Virus record (IMG/VR): IMGVR_UViG_3300048609_000040
DNA from: an uncultured virus (IMG/VR IMGVR_UViG_3300048609_000040)
Taxonomy: Duplodnaviria > Heunggongvirae > Uroviricota > Caudoviricetes
Direction: 5' to 3' (one strand)
Length of the DNA stretch: 64,000 nt
Below the pieces are notes generated by a model, which had not been told where the DNA came from, did not search any database, and worked only from the letters and a program-made list of their open reading frames with translations. The translations under genes were made by a program, and so were the position numbers. This document shows, in pieces, positions 16,541 to 59,040 of this stretch; position 1 is the stretch's first letter, and every line of letters starts with the position of its first letter.

Positions 16541-18445
16541 GTGATGTGTACTGATCGAGACATCGTAATACACACCGTCCCTGATCCGGTGCGTACAGAA
16601 CGTGAGGCGTTCCTTGTCGTCGGTCAGTGGTATTGGGTCAAACGGGACGTTAACGACGCTGACGACGACGACGACGACGCAGATGTGTGGTTGGGATGTA
16701 TTACGACAATTGGGTCTAACTACGCTGAACTAACCAGTGTCCACGAAGGCTATACACGCGTCCATTTCGACGAATTCGACGCGCAGTGCACCTTGGAACC
16801 TGATCCTGATCGTGTTTTTCAGGGGCAGATTGACAAGTACCAGGCGCAGGCCAAAGCGCTCATGGAAGAAATCCACGCTCTTACTGCCCAACTAGGCATC
16901 GCTCCCCGCGCAGAGCTTTATAACACAAGTGATGAGCAGTCTCAGGCATTGGTTGTCGCGCATGGTACCAAGGACGCCCAGGAGTACAAAGAGGCACTGA
17001 TCAAAGCGCAGAAGAAGACGCTCCCCGATCTATTCCAGAAGGTCAAGGAAACGCATGAGCAGCTTGCACGGTGGATGCAAGGCAAGCTCATCCCGATGCG
17101 CGCAACAACAACCCAGTTGAAGGAGCAGACAAAGAGAATCGAAGACAGAATCTTCACAGTGGAGTTGTATGCAGGACTTGTCGAATCGTTGGTACAGGTG
17201 TGTGAGGGCGCTCCAGCATCCAATGATACCAAACTGCACCTCCATCAGCGGCGACACTACATGGACGAAGAGTGTCTACTCGACTACAAAGCCGGCGGTA
17301 TGGAGTTCAAAGACCTCAAAGCATTCGATCGTTGGCTCGGCAAAAAGAAGAACTTCAACCGCATATTGCCGTTCCCGAGATCGTTGGTCGCTTTTCGAGT
17401 TAGACGCGACCAAAAAGAACACACGTTCACAAGCCTCTACTCGTTCATTCGGTTTTTGCTAAAGGACGATCTAGACAAGAAAACGTTTCTTTATCTACGA
17501 AACGGGGAACAGTTGTGGCGCCTCGAAACAGGAATCGACTTTGGCAAACGGTTGTTTCCCGATAAGGCATTGTCTACAACGCTAGGAACAGGCGAACTCT
17601 GGTTTAAGGAGTTTGCGGGCCGCGTCGACGAGATCATTTCAGACGCGGCCCACCAAGGTCTGCTGGAAGACCAAAAACAGGCTAAGAAAGAGTACAAAGC
17701 TGAATTGGCTGCGTGGAACAAACTATCCAAACAGGAGCAGGACGGACGCTGCAAGCCCTATTATTATGAGCCCCACGACAGGTGGGAAAAACTGACGCCT
17801 GACAGCGTCTATTATGATGACGCTTGTCGTAAGATCGCTGCAGAAGCAATGCAACACAACCGTGTTGCTGTCGTTCTGCAGGGCATCCTAGACCGTAGTC
17901 CTGCACTGCATCCGCACCCGCCTTGGCAGCTTTGGACACCAGAAGGCTTCACGAATGCCTTAGAGCTGCACTATGACCAGACACGTGCGTTGACCTCTGG
18001 TGCCGCGCCTGACTTCGAGGCGTATCGAGCCAAGCTCAATGCCTCGATCCGAAGGGGATCGACGACGGTTGGCCAAGACGACGCTTGGGAGCGCGCTATG
18101 GCCGAAAAATACAACGAAGAACACAAATGGAGTGATAAACAGTATCACACACCACATGGCAATCCAGGACCAGGATTGGTGGCGACCGTCACCAAACTAA
18201 GTCACGACAAGAAACGCGCCACGTTCGAGTGGTTGCGTGAACGGCGAAGCTATCAACGTTGGGGCAACCGCGGAGACATCAAGACAAGGTTTACGTGTGC
18301 GGTATCCGATCTGCTCAACGTTGACGCCTACCAACCAGGAGACTTTTTGCAGTTCTACTCAGATCCCAGAACCCGTGCGCAATATCTGAAGTGGGCACCA
18401 CTTCTACTCACAGCTGAGAACTACAAAGCGAAAATGAAGACATGA
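16541..18445 (+). CDS. large hypothetical protein with coiled-coil N-terminal region
   Basis: 634 aa ORF; ATGA-coupled to the downstream ligase-like gene. Confidence 0.8.
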   Translation: MMCTDRDIVIHTVPDPVRTEREAFLVVGQWYWVKRDVNDADDDDDDADVWLGCITTIGSNYAELTSVHEGYTRVHFDEFDAQCTLEPDPDRVFQGQIDKYQAQAKALMEEIHALTAQLGIAPRAELYNTSDEQSQALVVAHGTKDAQEYKEALIKAQKKTLPDLFQKVKETHEQLARWMQGKLIPMRATTTQLKEQTKRIEDRIFTVELYAGLVESLVQVCEGAPASNDTKLHLHQRRHYMDEECLLDYKAGGMEFKDLKAFDRWLGKKKNFNRILPFPRSLVAFRVRRDQKEHTFTSLYSFIRFLLKDDLDKKTFLYLRNGEQLWRLETGIDFGKRLFPDKALSTTLGTGELWFKEFAGRVDEIISDAAHQGLLEDQKQAKKEYKAELAAWNKLSKQEQDGRCKPYYYEPHDRWEKLTPDSVYYDDACRKIAAEAMQHNRVAVVLQGILDRSPALHPHPPWQLWTPEGFTNALELHYDQTRALTSGAAPDFEAYRAKLNASIRRGSTTVGQDDAWERAMAEKYNEEHKWSDKQYHTPHGNPGPGLVATVTKLSHDKKRATFEWLRERRSYQRWGNRGDIKTRFTCAVSDLLNVDAYQPGDFLQFYSDPRTRAQYLKWAPLLLTAENYKAKMKT

Positions 18446-19053
18446 AAGAGTATCCGTCAATCTCGCGTGCGTTTCGGGAGATCCCCAATGCATACATCTT
18501 CGATAAGCTCGACGGATCGTCTATGCGTTCCGAGTGGAACAGAAAACGCAGTTGGTACAAGCACGGTAGACGTCACGGACTACTTGATGACTCGAACACA
18601 GCTCTTACTGCCGTTCCTGTAATGTTTGGCAAGCTCTTCGCCGAACCTTTGGCGCGTGTGGCAACTAACAACAGGTGGGACCATCTCATCATCTTCTACG
18701 AGTTCTGGGGTACGAAAAGCCTCGCAGGTTTGCACTCCTCGGACGATGAAAAACATCTCACATTGTTCGACGCAGCGGTCGACAAGAAGGGTATCCTTGG
18801 ACCCAGGGATTTTCGCAAACTATTCGAGAACAACGTCGAAACAGCTGCCTTTCTGGGGATCCACAACTACACGCGAGGATTCGTGGAGTCAGTACGTCTT
18901 GGGCAGGTAGAAGGGATCACTTTCGAGGGTGTCGTTGCTAAGGCTGGAGAAGGTCACCATCTTGTCTATGCCAAAGCTAAAACACAACAATGGATCGACA
19001 AGGTTCTACAGATCTACGGTGCGAAGCAGGGCCAACAGTTGGTAGACAGCTGA
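18442..19053 (+). CDS. Rnl2-like RNA ligase / covalent nucleotidyltransferase
   Basis: KEYPSI N-terminus, motif I DKLDG, FYEFWG, FDA, EGVV, KAK. Confidence 0.75.
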   Translation: MKEYPSISRAFREIPNAYIFDKLDGSSMRSEWNRKRSWYKHGRRHGLLDDSNTALTAVPVMFGKLFAEPLARVATNNRWDHLIIFYEFWGTKSLAGLHSSDDEKHLTLFDAAVDKKGILGPRDFRKLFENNVETAAFLGIHNYTRGFVESVRLGQVEGITFEGVVAKAGEGHHLVYAKAKTQQWIDKVLQIYGAKQGQQLVDS

Positions 19054-19122
19054 GCTGTAACTGTTTGAAACATCTATGTAAATTAGTCATCAAACAGTTT
19101 GAATTTCCTGGTCGGGTTTTAT

Positions 19123-19169
19123 GTCATACTCTTGAATCGCGAGCGCGTCTAGCCAACCGAGGTTGGTAG
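19123..19169 (+). promoter_or_regulatory. repeated leader element: GTCATAC box plus CGAG-loop hairpin
   Basis: ccaac-CGAG-gttgg at 19153-19166; homologous to 12594-12644. Confidence 0.65.
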
Positions 19170-19217
19170 AAGATAAGAGCCTCGTGACGACCCGTGAACT
19201 TCGGATGTAGTGGAACC

Positions 19218-19589
19218 ATGGCGGACTGGAAGCAATCGAACCCCATCATCAAGCGCGAGGACGTGCTGATGGTCTACTCGGGTATCGCTGGCTGCATGTG
19301 CGGCTGCCTCGGCAACTATCGTTACCCCAAGGGCAACAAGGAGCTGGGCAAGACGCAGCGTGGCTACGAAATCAAGCCCGAAGAAATCAACGATGCGCAA
19401 GTCACGCGCGTGCTCAAGAAGATGGCTACCCTCACGGATGTTGAGGTTGGCGAGATCTACGGCAAGAGCGGTGATTCGCTGTTCTATTGCTGGACCGACG
19501 ATGAGACTCGTCGTCGCTACGCCGTGTACACGAAGCCAGGAGCGCCGTACACCAAGCCAGAGGGCGTGTGTTGTGGAGAGCCCAAATGA
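19218..19589 (+). CDS. hypothetical protein
   Basis: YSG..GCMCGC.GNY motif; start moved to ATG 19218. Confidence 0.65.
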   Translation: MADWKQSNPIIKREDVLMVYSGIAGCMCGCLGNYRYPKGNKELGKTQRGYEIKPEEINDAQVTRVLKKMATLTDVEVGEIYGKSGDSLFYCWTDDETRRRYAVYTKPGAPYTKPEGVCCGEPK

Positions 19590-57781: not shown

Positions 57782-58522
57782 TCAGCCGAGCATGCGAATA
57801 GGGAATGGCCGCTCTTCAACTGGTTGCTGTGGAGTATCGCTGGACATTTTCTTTTCCCATCGTTTAGCGGGACCGTTCCAACGAAAACCAGCCTTTTTGG
57901 CTAGCTCTCGATCGTCGAAAGAAACCAATGCTTGAAACAGACTTTGCGGCTTCAGCGCTTCCAGCACCTGTGCATCGAGATCCTCTGCGAGTGTAAGCAA
58001 GTCGCAGACGAGCATCACGTCTGCAAGCGCTCGATGTTTCTGACTGCCGATCGGGATCCCGTGATCGACTGCGAGATACCGAAGGGATTTGGCCTTACCC
58101 TGCTGTGGATAGTTGATACCGTCTTTGGTGCAGAACCAGGGAATGGGTACACGGTCTATCCCACGCAACAGTGGTGGATTCTCGGCGAGTGCGTCGATGA
58201 AGCCTTTGTCGAAGTCCTTGTTGTGCGCACAACAGACGTCAACTGCACCAGCATCGCAAAGCTGTAGGACAGGTGCGAGAGCGCCGTCTAGCTCCGTGAA
58301 CGCGGGACGCCATTCGTAGAGGTTGACTGCCGCTTGTAAGGCATCCTTGGAGATGTGATTGATCGCCTCAGCAGGATTGTCGATCAAGATCGGCATGATC
58401 GTGCTGTACATCCACAACACCTGTTTGACTGTCGAATCAAACAGTGCTGCACCTACTTCGAGGAGGGCGTCTCGTCCGGCTTTTAGCCCTGTAGTTTCTA
58501 CGTCAAGCACCAAGATTCGCAT
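57782..58522 (-). CDS. DEDDh 3'-5' exonuclease (DnaQ-like)
   Basis: LDVETTG, AHNKDFD, HRALAD; C-terminal VSF..RE.AK.AGFRW module. Confidence 0.92.
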   Translation of the reverse strand: MRILVLDVETTGLKAGRDALLEVGAALFDSTVKQVLWMYSTIMPILIDNPAEAINHISKDALQAAVNLYEWRPAFTELDGALAPVLQLCDAGAVDVCCAHNKDFDKGFIDALAENPPLLRGIDRVPIPWFCTKDGINYPQQGKAKSLRYLAVDHGIPIGSQKHRALADVMLVCDLLTLAEDLDAQVLEALKPQSLFQALVSFDDRELAKKAGFRWNGPAKRWEKKMSSDTPQQPVEERPFPIRMLG

Positions 58523-58583
58523 GCCTCGTATCTAACATGCCAGTGTGACAAAGAATGTTGCAGGAAAGTTGCCCAACACTTTC

Positions 58584-58612
58584 TTGACAATGCCGTCAAT
58601 CGATCTCATGAT
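58584..58612 (+). promoter_or_regulatory. sigma70-like promoter TTGACA-17-CATGAT, predicting a leaderless start at ATG 58620
   Basis: Perfect -35, 17-nt spacer, ATG 7 nt after the -10. Confidence 0.6.
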
Positions 58613-58619
58613 GAGAACC

Positions 58620-59040
58620 ATGCAACCACGACCACAGCCACGACGCTAACCTTACCCAGTACATCATCGTTCGGCGTGATTTGCCGCTTGGTGATCTCGC
58701 AGCTCAACTTGCACATGCTGCTGGAGGGTCCCTAGCCGATCCCCGACTACACCTCAGCCGAGATTGCGGCTGTTTTGAGACACCCCAAGACGGAGCGTGC
58801 TCGCGCTGTTATGGGACGGGTCAATGCCTGCCGACGACTTACGTCGTCATTCTAACAGCCACGGACGAAGCTCAACTTGCCTGGGCCGAGTATCAACTCG
58901 TTCGAGCTGAGATCCCTCACGTTGTGATTAGAGAGCCAGACGCGCCATACAACGGGGCAGTCACGGCCATTGGTGTACTTCCAGTTCGAGACCGCCGTGC
59001 AGTGCGGCGAGCACTTGGACAATTAGAGCTATTGCGATGA
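58620..59040 (+). CDS. Pth2-like peptidyl-tRNA hydrolase, probably expressed via +1 frameshift from leader ORF 58620-58649
   Basis: TQYIIVRRDL..G..AAQLAHA...YVVIL...REPD...TAIGV.P...L..L.LL; conserved N-terminal strand lies upstream of the only in-frame TTG (58681). Confidence 0.75.

Follow-up and report, generated by a model that had tools for sequence, protein, structure and literature searches.

Why should one phage-like genome carry two RtcB-type RNA ligases together with two ATP-dependent ones, and what kind of RNA damage would such a set repair? The question is raised by a 64,000-nucleotide stretch of DNA from an uncultured Caudoviricetes virus (IMG/VR record IMGVR_UViG_3300048609_000040), analyzed here in its entirety as "the window". 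A preliminary description had listed two divergent RtcB genes, two Rnl2-like ligases, an RlaP-like nucleotidyltransferase, two metallophosphoesterases, a Pth2-like hydrolase and two tRNAs as a dispersed arsenal against host ribotoxins that covers both ligation chemistries. Both chemistries are indeed encoded, via the RtcB proteins and the ATP ligases and, judged from the translations, none of the RtcBs, ATP ligases and phosphoesterases, nor RlaP, has lost its catalytic motifs. The word "dispersed" fits in part only, since two compact modules, A and B, hold five of the genes; it is right for the singletons, namely a mini-ligase of 203 amino acids (aa), the Pth2-like protein and tRNA-Asn/His. 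The interval 18442–59040 assigned to the arsenal contains most of the listed genes but leaves out the phosphoesterase at 10609 and the tRNAs.

With a probability of roughly 60%, we read the window as part of a large phage-like genome whose accessory region is an RNA end-healing and sealing toolkit, made of two modules plus singletons and serving a counter-ribotoxin role. RtcB1 and RtcB2 would join 2′,3′-cyclic phosphate or 3′-phosphate ends directly to the 5′-OH ends produced by metal-independent ribotoxins, and RlaP would put back one or two lost 3′ nucleotides. The metallophosphoesterase of module B (MPE2) may remove 3′-terminal phosphates and thereby supply a 3′-OH, allowing the ATP ligases to seal 3′-OH/5′-P nicks in folded RNA; the Pth2-like protein would free peptidyl-tRNA from stalled ribosomes, and the phage tRNAs could stand in for cleaved host tRNAs. 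Substrates, division of labor, the "layering" of the set and its counter-defence role are thus putative, being read from gene content. A counter-ribotoxin interpretation is not new: Iyer et al. 2021 interpreted RtcB, ATP ligases, phosphoesterases, RlaP, PTH2 and tRNAs in jumbo phages as anti-ribotoxin RNA repair (PMC7824862), and here it is proposed from sequence. New here are a phage-like genome with RtcBs of two origins, a phosphoesterase–RtcB cassette flanked by two copies of a small gene, and two families of minimal ligases whose active sites are intact.

The two RtcB genes and their modules

Both RtcB genes lie on the plus strand at the starts reported earlier, 27167 and 42285, and were confirmed via Pfam PF01139 with 358.5 bits (E 8e-107) and 303.9 bits (E 3e-90), respectively. 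The Pfam scan covered 94 open reading frames (ORFs) of the window, using cut-offs of 27 bits for PF01139 and PF09414, 23 for PF10127 and PF01981, and 21.5 for Metallophos. RtcB1 (27167..28360; ORF open from GTG 27056, ATG at 27167) is a short 3′-phosphate RNA ligase of the phage/E. coli type, and RtcB2 (42285..43799) a long, cellular-type RtcB that starts at TTG 42285 or at ATG 42306, the latter in agreement with the 497-aa call of a 97% identical relative. The motifs DGGCG, GGGNHF, HSGS, HHN and HGAGR of RtcB1 align with P. horikoshii RtcB, as do NDVGCG, GGGNHF, HSGS, PHN and HGAGR of RtcB2 with Thermus and Pyrococcus RtcB (PDB chains 1uc2 and 2epg for the two sets). Residues matching the metal ligands and the GMP-histidine of the P. 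horikoshii enzyme are retained in both proteins; Asp95, Cys98 and Asn202/His203 were numbered by counting off the printed alignment, and His234, His329 and His404 follow the numbering of that protein.

The two proteins are 27% identical, and their relatives differ accordingly. Top tblastn matches of RtcB1 are phage genes with 44–53% identity, from Stenotrophomonas phage ANB28, Microbacterium and Rhodococcus phages and BcepSaruman. Matches were found at 700 places in 700 phage records, so that none of the 700 holds two copies; the rarity of two-RtcB phages rests on these records, the literature searches made having been aimed elsewhere, and the per-phage RNA-repair tables in the supplements of PMC7824862 could bear on it. 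RtcB2 has phage matches of ~30% at best (144 places in 144 records) and hundreds of relatives with 55–60% identity in a large protein collection, those with names being assigned by their sources to Kofleriaceae, Myxococcota, Deltaproteobacteria or Thermoanaerobaculia. No relatives of RtcB2 were found in IMG/VR, and a scan of genome contigs with the RtcB2 protein alone returned only ~30% relatives. An RtcB phylogeny, as suggested by the preliminary description, was built from 47 rows hand-picked from earlier matches, with no M. xanthus or PDB sequences among them, as a quick IQ-TREE run with the Shimodaira–Hasegawa-like approximate likelihood ratio test (SH-aLRT) as its only support, and it places the two proteins in separate clades. 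RtcB1 groups with E. coli RtcB and nine phage RtcBs in an 11-row clade (SH-aLRT 100) and, within it, in a 5-row all-phage group (96). RtcB2 and its 97% relative are sister to 10 cellular rows (95) inside a 36-row clade of long RtcBs, and the branch parting RtcB1 from RtcB2 has a support of 100. Because the tree places RtcB1 with phage rows and RtcB2 with cellular ones, the two genes are not duplicates: RtcB1 is of phage stock and RtcB2 was captured from cells. Neither protein reaches the PrfH-linked release_rtcB model TIGR03073 (140.6 and 139.3 bits compared with a cut-off of 271.8). Around eight cellular RtcB2-like metagenome loci, the neighbors are heterogeneous, with 35 ORFs comprising one sigma-54 activator and otherwise unrelated families.

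Module A (24585–29965) runs from RlaP through four small ORFs to RtcB1, which is followed by a Cys-rich ORF and an ATP DNA ligase. The RlaP-family Pol-beta nucleotidyltransferase (24585..25487, plus strand), located 1.7 kb upstream of RtcB1, was recognized as such in the earlier account and matches PF10127 with 63.4 bits and phrog_388 with 159.6 bits; its translation carries the Pol-beta motif GSVAYG...SDVDV. In vitro, RlaP adds one or two nucleoside monophosphates to damaged RNA 3′ ends (bioRxiv 10.64898/2025.12.29.696909). Two of the small ORFs between RlaP and RtcB1, adjacent at 25897–26507 and 94 and 107 aa long, are clear paralogues sharing ...QVVT.HQGCKAT.VPVLI... and have no family match. 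The Cys-rich 123-aa ORF (28364..28735, plus strand) follows RtcB1 after 3 nt and abuts the DNA ligase (28736–29965, plus strand). It has no family in Pfam or Atlas searches, and one homologue, 33% identical, lies in a metagenomic locus (L098) that also has an RtcB; its membership in a repair module is uncertain. Because Atlas gave no match, its reading as an Archease-like cofactor is unsupported. Behind the DNA ligase, at 30014–32827, a Rec-domain protein is followed by an overlapping protein with HTH_3 and Sigma70_r4 and by a 479-aa protein with WGR, PARP_reg and PARP-catalytic domains. The Rec-domain protein (30014–30385) could be the "cRec" of Iyer et al.; it scores as an ordinary Response_reg (52.5 bits), which does not discriminate between the two. 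In the PARP protein, LFHGS..., GVYFAD... and HNEFIIY, read from the translation with no alignment to any PARP, hold residues able to form an H-Y-E triad; Iyer et al. 2021 also note PARPs in phages (PMC7824862). Just upstream of an RtcB2-like gene, the metagenomic locus L069 carries genes for a SpoU methylase and a PARP catalytic protein.

This gene order admits another account, namely repair of DNA or of RNA–DNA junctions, in which RtcB1 would join or cap DNA 3′-phosphates and the ATP ligases would close ribonucleotide 3′-OH nicks during replication or repair, and not in tRNA or rRNA. RtcB1, the 123-aa ORF and the DNA ligase are separated by merely 0–3 nt, the Rec, sigma/HTH and WGR–PARP genes follow, and the last of these is 3 kb from RtcB1. 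RtcB can join 5′-OH DNA in vitro (PMC8051266) and cap DNA 3′ ends (PMC10630183), Rnl2 and Rnl5 seal duplex nicks with an RNA 3′-OH strand, and loss of DraRnl renders Deinococcus radiation-sensitive (both PMC3884662, PMC5397189). Elsewhere, the PARP gene of L069 is 1 kb from its RtcB2-like gene, and DNA ligase genes occur near mini-ligase genes in two further loci (L086, L235). We nevertheless consider this account improbable: RlaP, Pth2 and the tRNAs indicate RNA and translation, and the nearest phage homologues of RtcB1 have tRNA genes, an RNA ligase, or Nudix and GatB-like genes as their neighbors and not DNA repair genes. The GatB/YqeY-like neighbors have no counterpart in the window. Moreover, RtcB–DNA ligase adjacency is not seen in ANB28, Cece or BcepSaruman.

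Module B (39984–44160) is packed more tightly than module A. It opens with a ~260-aa ATP RNA ligase, continues with a coiled-coil ORF and a small Cys-rich ORF, then MPE2 and RtcB2, and closes with another copy of the small ORF. MPE2 (41498..42295, plus strand), a calcineurin-like metallophosphoesterase immediately upstream of RtcB2, matches Metallophos with 51.8 bits and its translation has all five metal-binding motifs (TDTH, SGDI, GNHD, THV and GHTH); the nearest solved relative is GpdQ, a weak match (E 0.09). Both small Cys-rich ORFs are on the plus strand and match phrog_20586. The first (41295..41498, 67 aa, E 1e-10) has its stop abutting the MPE2 start, and the second (43978..44160, E 3.6e-9) is listed as an ORF opening at 43885, with the shared part beginning at ATG 43978. 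They are paralogues and make up a direct repeat on either side of MPE2–RtcB2 (123 nt, 81% identity, spacing 2683 nt). The coiled-coil ORF (40780–41274, ~164 aa), situated between the RNA ligase and the first small ORF, contains a 24-nt tandem repeat at 41162–41209. One metagenomic contig, L051, displays the order of the window, with ligase (89% identical), small ORF, MPE2 (97%), RtcB2 (97%) and small ORF; copy 1 of the small ORF is kept in it, and the ~500-bp coiled-coil insert of the window is absent. Ratios of nonsynonymous to synonymous differences (pN/pS) against L051 are 0.106 for RtcB2, 0.066 for MPE2 and 0.259 for the ligase, and with values of 0.066–0.259 module B is under purifying selection.

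Module B could also have arrived without a purpose of its own, as a recently captured cellular cassette that duplicates the job of RtcB1 and has no distinct substrate, the "arsenal" being a by-product of gene flux. The nesting of RtcB2 beside cellular sequences, with no phage relative above ~30%, fits such accretion, and so do the direct repeat on both sides of MPE2–RtcB2, the confinement of the cassette to the window and its close relative L051, and the ~500-bp insertion that distinguishes the two. The pN/pS values of 0.07–0.11 for MPE2 and RtcB2, however, indicate constraint, the catalytic residues of RtcB2 are all kept, and with 27% identity and different length classes the two RtcBs could plausibly differ in specificity. 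We therefore judge redundant accretion an unlikely origin for the set.

A more specific form of the toolkit reading divides the work between the modules, and we put it forward as a speculative possibility, all of its parts taken together. RtcB1 and RlaP would mend tRNA anticodon loops, and the captured, Myxococcota-type RtcB2 cassette would handle another target, conferring immunity to two classes of host ribotoxin. RtcB2 would share its operon with a minimal ATP ligase and a metallophosphoesterase, in a movable cassette bracketed by duplicated small zinc-finger-like genes, and its target might be the rRNA of stalled ribosomes, or ends requiring capping or re-phosphorylation chemistry. Should the substrates of the two RtcBs differ, the window would offer a natural system for what sets RtcB specificity, a question raised by the Myxococcus and E. 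coli paralogues, and a case of a phage recruiting a cellular RNA ligase into its own repair kit.

Two minimal ATP-dependent ligases

Both ligases described earlier as Rnl2-like are RNA ligase-like, the one by phrog_548 and the other by PF09414. The mini-ligase (18442..19053, plus strand) consists of a nucleotidyltransferase domain only, with motif I DKLDG (K22). It has no Pfam match of its own and, together with the phosphoesterase at 10609, is an exception among the gene families, most of which exceed their Pfam cut-offs. It matches phrog_548, "RNA ligase", with E 2.4e-7; a 40% identical homologue in L086 reaches PF09414 with 27.9 bits, and several cluster representatives of the family carry PF09414. 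The family comprises 695 matches, mostly ~207 aa long and on contigs of up to 570 kb, and extends to huge uncultured phages, XacN1 and Lak phages. Residues K22, D24, G25, E87, F109, D110, E162, G163, K167, K178 and K180 are invariant in 35 sequences. The AlphaFold model (predicted local distance difference test, pLDDT, 91.4) shows a ligase nucleotidyltransferase fold, and its best Foldseek matches in the PDB come from several RNA ligase families (E ~1e-5, TMq 0.52–0.62). The mini-ligase start is overlapped by the stop of a 634-aa ORF (16541–18445) that has no match in Pfam, PHROG, NCBIfam or Atlas.

The second ligase (39984..40772, plus strand; ORF open from GTG 39954, 272 aa) is a stand-alone ATP RNA ligase of ~260 aa with motif I EKVDG and a PF09414 match of 40.9 bits. 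It is 39% identical, over 93% of its length, to AYD81305.1 (gp136) of Streptomyces phage JustBecause, cited by Iyer et al. 2021 among rare divergent ATP ligases outside Rnl1/Rnl2 (PMC7824862). A further 1195 matches, ~250–260 aa long and 43–54% identical, are named by their sources as Planctomycetes, cyanobacteria, Streptomyces and Myxococcota. Invariant in 33 sequences are E65, K66, G69, E135, F159, D160, E244, G245, R249, K258 and R260, and the AlphaFold model (pLDDT 88.2) has NgrRnl, T4 Rnl2 and REL1 as its top Foldseek folds.

The two ATP ligases are unrelated to each other by sequence (E 1.8), and motifs I, III, IIIa, IV and V of nucleotidyltransferases are invariant in both families. Foldseek lists Aquifex 3qwu, Rnl1, REL1, Naegleria Rnl5, T4 Rnl2 and archaeal Rnl3 at similar scores; PDB sequence searches gave nothing usable for either ligase, RlaP or the Pth2-like protein. 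With 203 and 272 aa, both proteins end ~12–23 residues past motif V and are modeled as single domains, compared with 233–388 aa for the matched PDB ligases. Being single nucleotidyltransferase domains with no accessory domain, they can be called RNA ligase-like, but the strict label "Rnl2-like" is too specific. Few ligase-fold proteins with a full set of catalytic motifs are smaller; both types occur widely in large phages and bacteria and would be of interest for mechanism and as tools. No biochemical study of the 203-aa or the ~260-aa type was found, although no literature search was aimed at them.

On other viral contigs, a Pth2-like gene lies near the mini-ligase at 3 of 29 loci; a scan of 23 loci also showed truncated RF1-like, TROVE, class II aminoacyl-tRNA synthetase and SpoU genes. 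In two viral loci (L226 4121–7492 and L232 3803–7494, plus the near-identical L227), a Pth2-like gene and an HNH gene precede the mini-ligase, which is followed within ~200 bp by a 219–226-aa release factor devoid of the N-terminal domain (RF-1 and part of PCRF); these truncated factors score 190–202 bits with prfA and 78–82 bits with prfH, all below the cut-offs. This order suggests a link of the mini-ligase family to ribosome rescue. On the phage-like metagenome contig L086 (55.5 kb), the mini-ligase homologue shares the sequence with an AlkB-like oxygenase, an ATP DNA ligase, Ro60/TROVE, a RimK-type ATP-grasp protein, a long RtcB (49% identical to RtcB2), an HD domain protein and an NAPRTase.

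Translation genes and functions absent from the window

The Pth2-like hydrolase of the preliminary description exists as a divergent protein (58654..59040, plus strand) with a Cys-rich CxxCxGxG-like insert. TTG 58681 is its only canonical start, and a conserved N-terminal strand lies upstream of it. The PF01981 score, 24.6 bits and thus just above the cut-off, rises to 31.8 when nine upstream in-frame codons are added. The upstream-conserved frame covers 58610–58681 in the window and 2950–3060 in locus L134, and a 9-codon ATG ORF overlaps it in another frame. The sole phage tblastn match is the "peptidyl-tRNA hydrolase" of Myxococcus phage Mx1 (38.6%), which adjoins a tRNA gene and a TROVE protein and in which similarity likewise extends upstream of the annotated start. 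The Cys-rich insert is not shared by the Mx1 homologue. Before AAQ, where Gly-Lys is usual in Pth2, the window protein has Gly-Asp and that of Mx1 Gly-Val. Because Mx1 provides the only phage homologue and the named relatives of RtcB2 include Myxococcota, a Myxococcota-type host is hinted at, as a lead only given the GC content of the window and the few matches. The gene set may in turn predict which RNA-targeting defences the host lineage uses.

Both tRNAs were confirmed by ARAGORN and Rfam RF00005: tRNA-Asn(GTT) at 60337–60407 (34.4 bits) and tRNA-His(GTG) at 60414–60487 (45.7 bits), 6 nt apart on the plus strand. They serve GUN-anticodon boxes, and colicin E5 cuts exactly the Tyr/His/Asn/Asp tRNA set; the coincidence is a post-hoc observation on two genes. 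That the toolkit merely services the phage's own RNAs, processing or maintaining tRNAs and transcripts, for instance after phage nucleases act in host shut-off, is the least probable of the alternatives, since, although phage tRNA genes are present and an RNase_T/DnaQ-like exonuclease gene (57782–58522, minus strand) lies divergent to the adjoining Pth2-like gene, Rfam detects the two tRNAs but no intron or further RNA family in the whole window, and no phage endoribonuclease was recognized among the 94 ORFs.

The other phosphoesterase, MPE1 (10609..11190, plus strand), is likewise real, as an aq_1665/phrog_547-type protein (phrog_547, 181.6 bits). It has no Pfam match; its DLHLGH, GDV, GNHD and CHY align with PDB 1xm7 (E 6e-8). 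An MPE1 homologue in locus L117 adjoins primase/helicase genes, and nothing ties MPE1 to RNA repair, so that its inclusion in the arsenal is not sustained.

Several results weigh against the toolkit reading. T4 Rnl2 requires its C-terminal domain for sealing, and by length and model both ATP ligases of the window have no accessory domain after motif V. The called ORFs and a six-frame scan of the window yielded no convincing Walker-A motif of a polynucleotide kinase; 5′-OH ends can therefore not be prepared for the ATP ligases by genes of the window alone, and a heal-then-seal route of the Pnkp/Rnl type is incomplete within it. Either a kinase gene lies outside the window, or the substrates of the ATP ligases are 5′-P/3′-OH nicks. 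Archease, 2H, HD, TROVE and RF-1 domains have no Pfam match among the 94 ORFs. The Pth2-like protein scores 25.8 with the NCBIfam Pth2 equivalog (cut-off 126), and upstream of its TTG no in-frame ATG, GTG or TTG exists, just two ATC codons. Gene neighborhoods offer little for module B beyond L051: none of 50 IMG/VR loci with a ligase of the 39954 type has an RtcB within 6 kb (an MPE1-like gene occurs in 4 and RlaP in 1; Pfam was run on 134 ORFs from 22 of 75 loci), and of 130 RtcB2-like loci from genomes and metagenomes, L051 alone has an MPE2 homologue next to its RtcB. The module is thus lineage-specific and not a conserved arrangement. Finally, the RtcB paralogues of Myxococcus xanthus are unlike in ligation and capping activity (PMC10630183), so that plain RNA ligation is not a given for RtcB2.

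Known systems and the genome setting

Compared with the jumbo-phage complements of the Burkholderia phages BcepSaruman/BcepSauron and Xanthomonas phage XacN1, the window has the same parts list and the same proposed purpose but two RtcBs, and no PNK-HAD or other kinase was found in it. Whole-record counts of RtcB, RNA_ligase, RlaP and PTH2 are 1, 4, 1 and 2 in LR745208 (485 kb); 0, 5, 1 and 2 in XacN1; 0, 1, 1 and 0 in JustBecause; 1, 1, 1 and 0 in BcepSaruman; and 0, 0, 0 and 1 in Mx1. With two RtcBs, two RNA-ligase-type proteins (one matching PF09414 itself), one RlaP and one PTH2, the window therefore equals the richest of these known cases in breadth, and the second RtcB is the outlier. 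T4 Pnkp and Rnl1, directed against the anticodon nuclease PrrC, are likewise a phage answer to tRNA cleavage, in which end healing precedes ATP-dependent sealing. T4 relies on a Pnkp-type kinase, a HAD phosphatase and Rnl1; the window has no such kinase, a metallophosphoesterase and bare nucleotidyltransferase-domain ligases, and its RtcBs would provide a kinase-independent route, unlike the T4 pair.

Any combination of ligases is possible in a phage and probably not redundant, according to Iyer et al. 2021 (PMC7824862). Bacterial rtcBA operons offer a further parallel, as RtcB1 clusters with E. coli RtcB and an RlaP gene is nearby, as in the rtcB-rlaP-rtcA operons described from Pseudomonas (bioRxiv 10.64898/2025.12.29.696909); the window, however, contains neither the RtcA cyclase nor the RtcR regulator, and four small ORFs part RlaP from RtcB1. 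In the RtcB2–PrfH module, which repairs ribosomes after colicin E3 damage (PMC9304027, PMC9223846, PMC13166195), a second, specialized RtcB paralogue is also combined in one genome with a rescue factor for stalled ribosomes, a part that the Pth2-like protein might play in the window. The window differs from it in that both RtcBs fall short of TIGR03073 and no RF-1/PCRF match exists among the 94 ORFs, unlike the two viral contigs with truncated RF1-like genes beside the mini-ligase. AYD81305.1 of JustBecause abuts a Ro-like protein and tRNA genes, whereas its relative in the window heads the phosphoesterase–RtcB2 module.

The long ORFs of the window are almost all on the plus strand, and GC content is 51–55% throughout. 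No near relative was found by blastn against phages; the top record matches at 67% over 15% of a 2.9-kb query. Pfam and PHROG scans leave most ORFs without a family; those recognized include genes typical of large phages, namely a tyrosine integrase, a ribonucleotide reductase with a LAGLIDADG insert, a dCMP deaminase, an ATP DNA ligase, an M23 peptidase and many PHROG-only proteins. Since no structural genes occur within the window, we infer its phage status from this content. For the relative of RtcB2 at 97% identity, and likewise for that of the RNA ligase at 89%, the longest contig listed measures 243,706 bp, which suggests a genome of jumbo-phage size. Promoter and terminator scans of modules A and B gave nothing above shuffled sequence. 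The sole long genes on the minus strand, at 50669–52999 and 56694–58522, are a 776-aa ORF and a 352-aa ORF, both with no family match, and the exonuclease. A tyrosine recombinase (8890–9753; Phage_integrase, 62.9 bits) stands in a genome that otherwise has a large lytic-type look. In the ribonucleotide reductase large subunit (46749–50036), LAGLIDADG_3 (residues 453–525) divides the barrel-domain match in two, and the insert is probably an intein.

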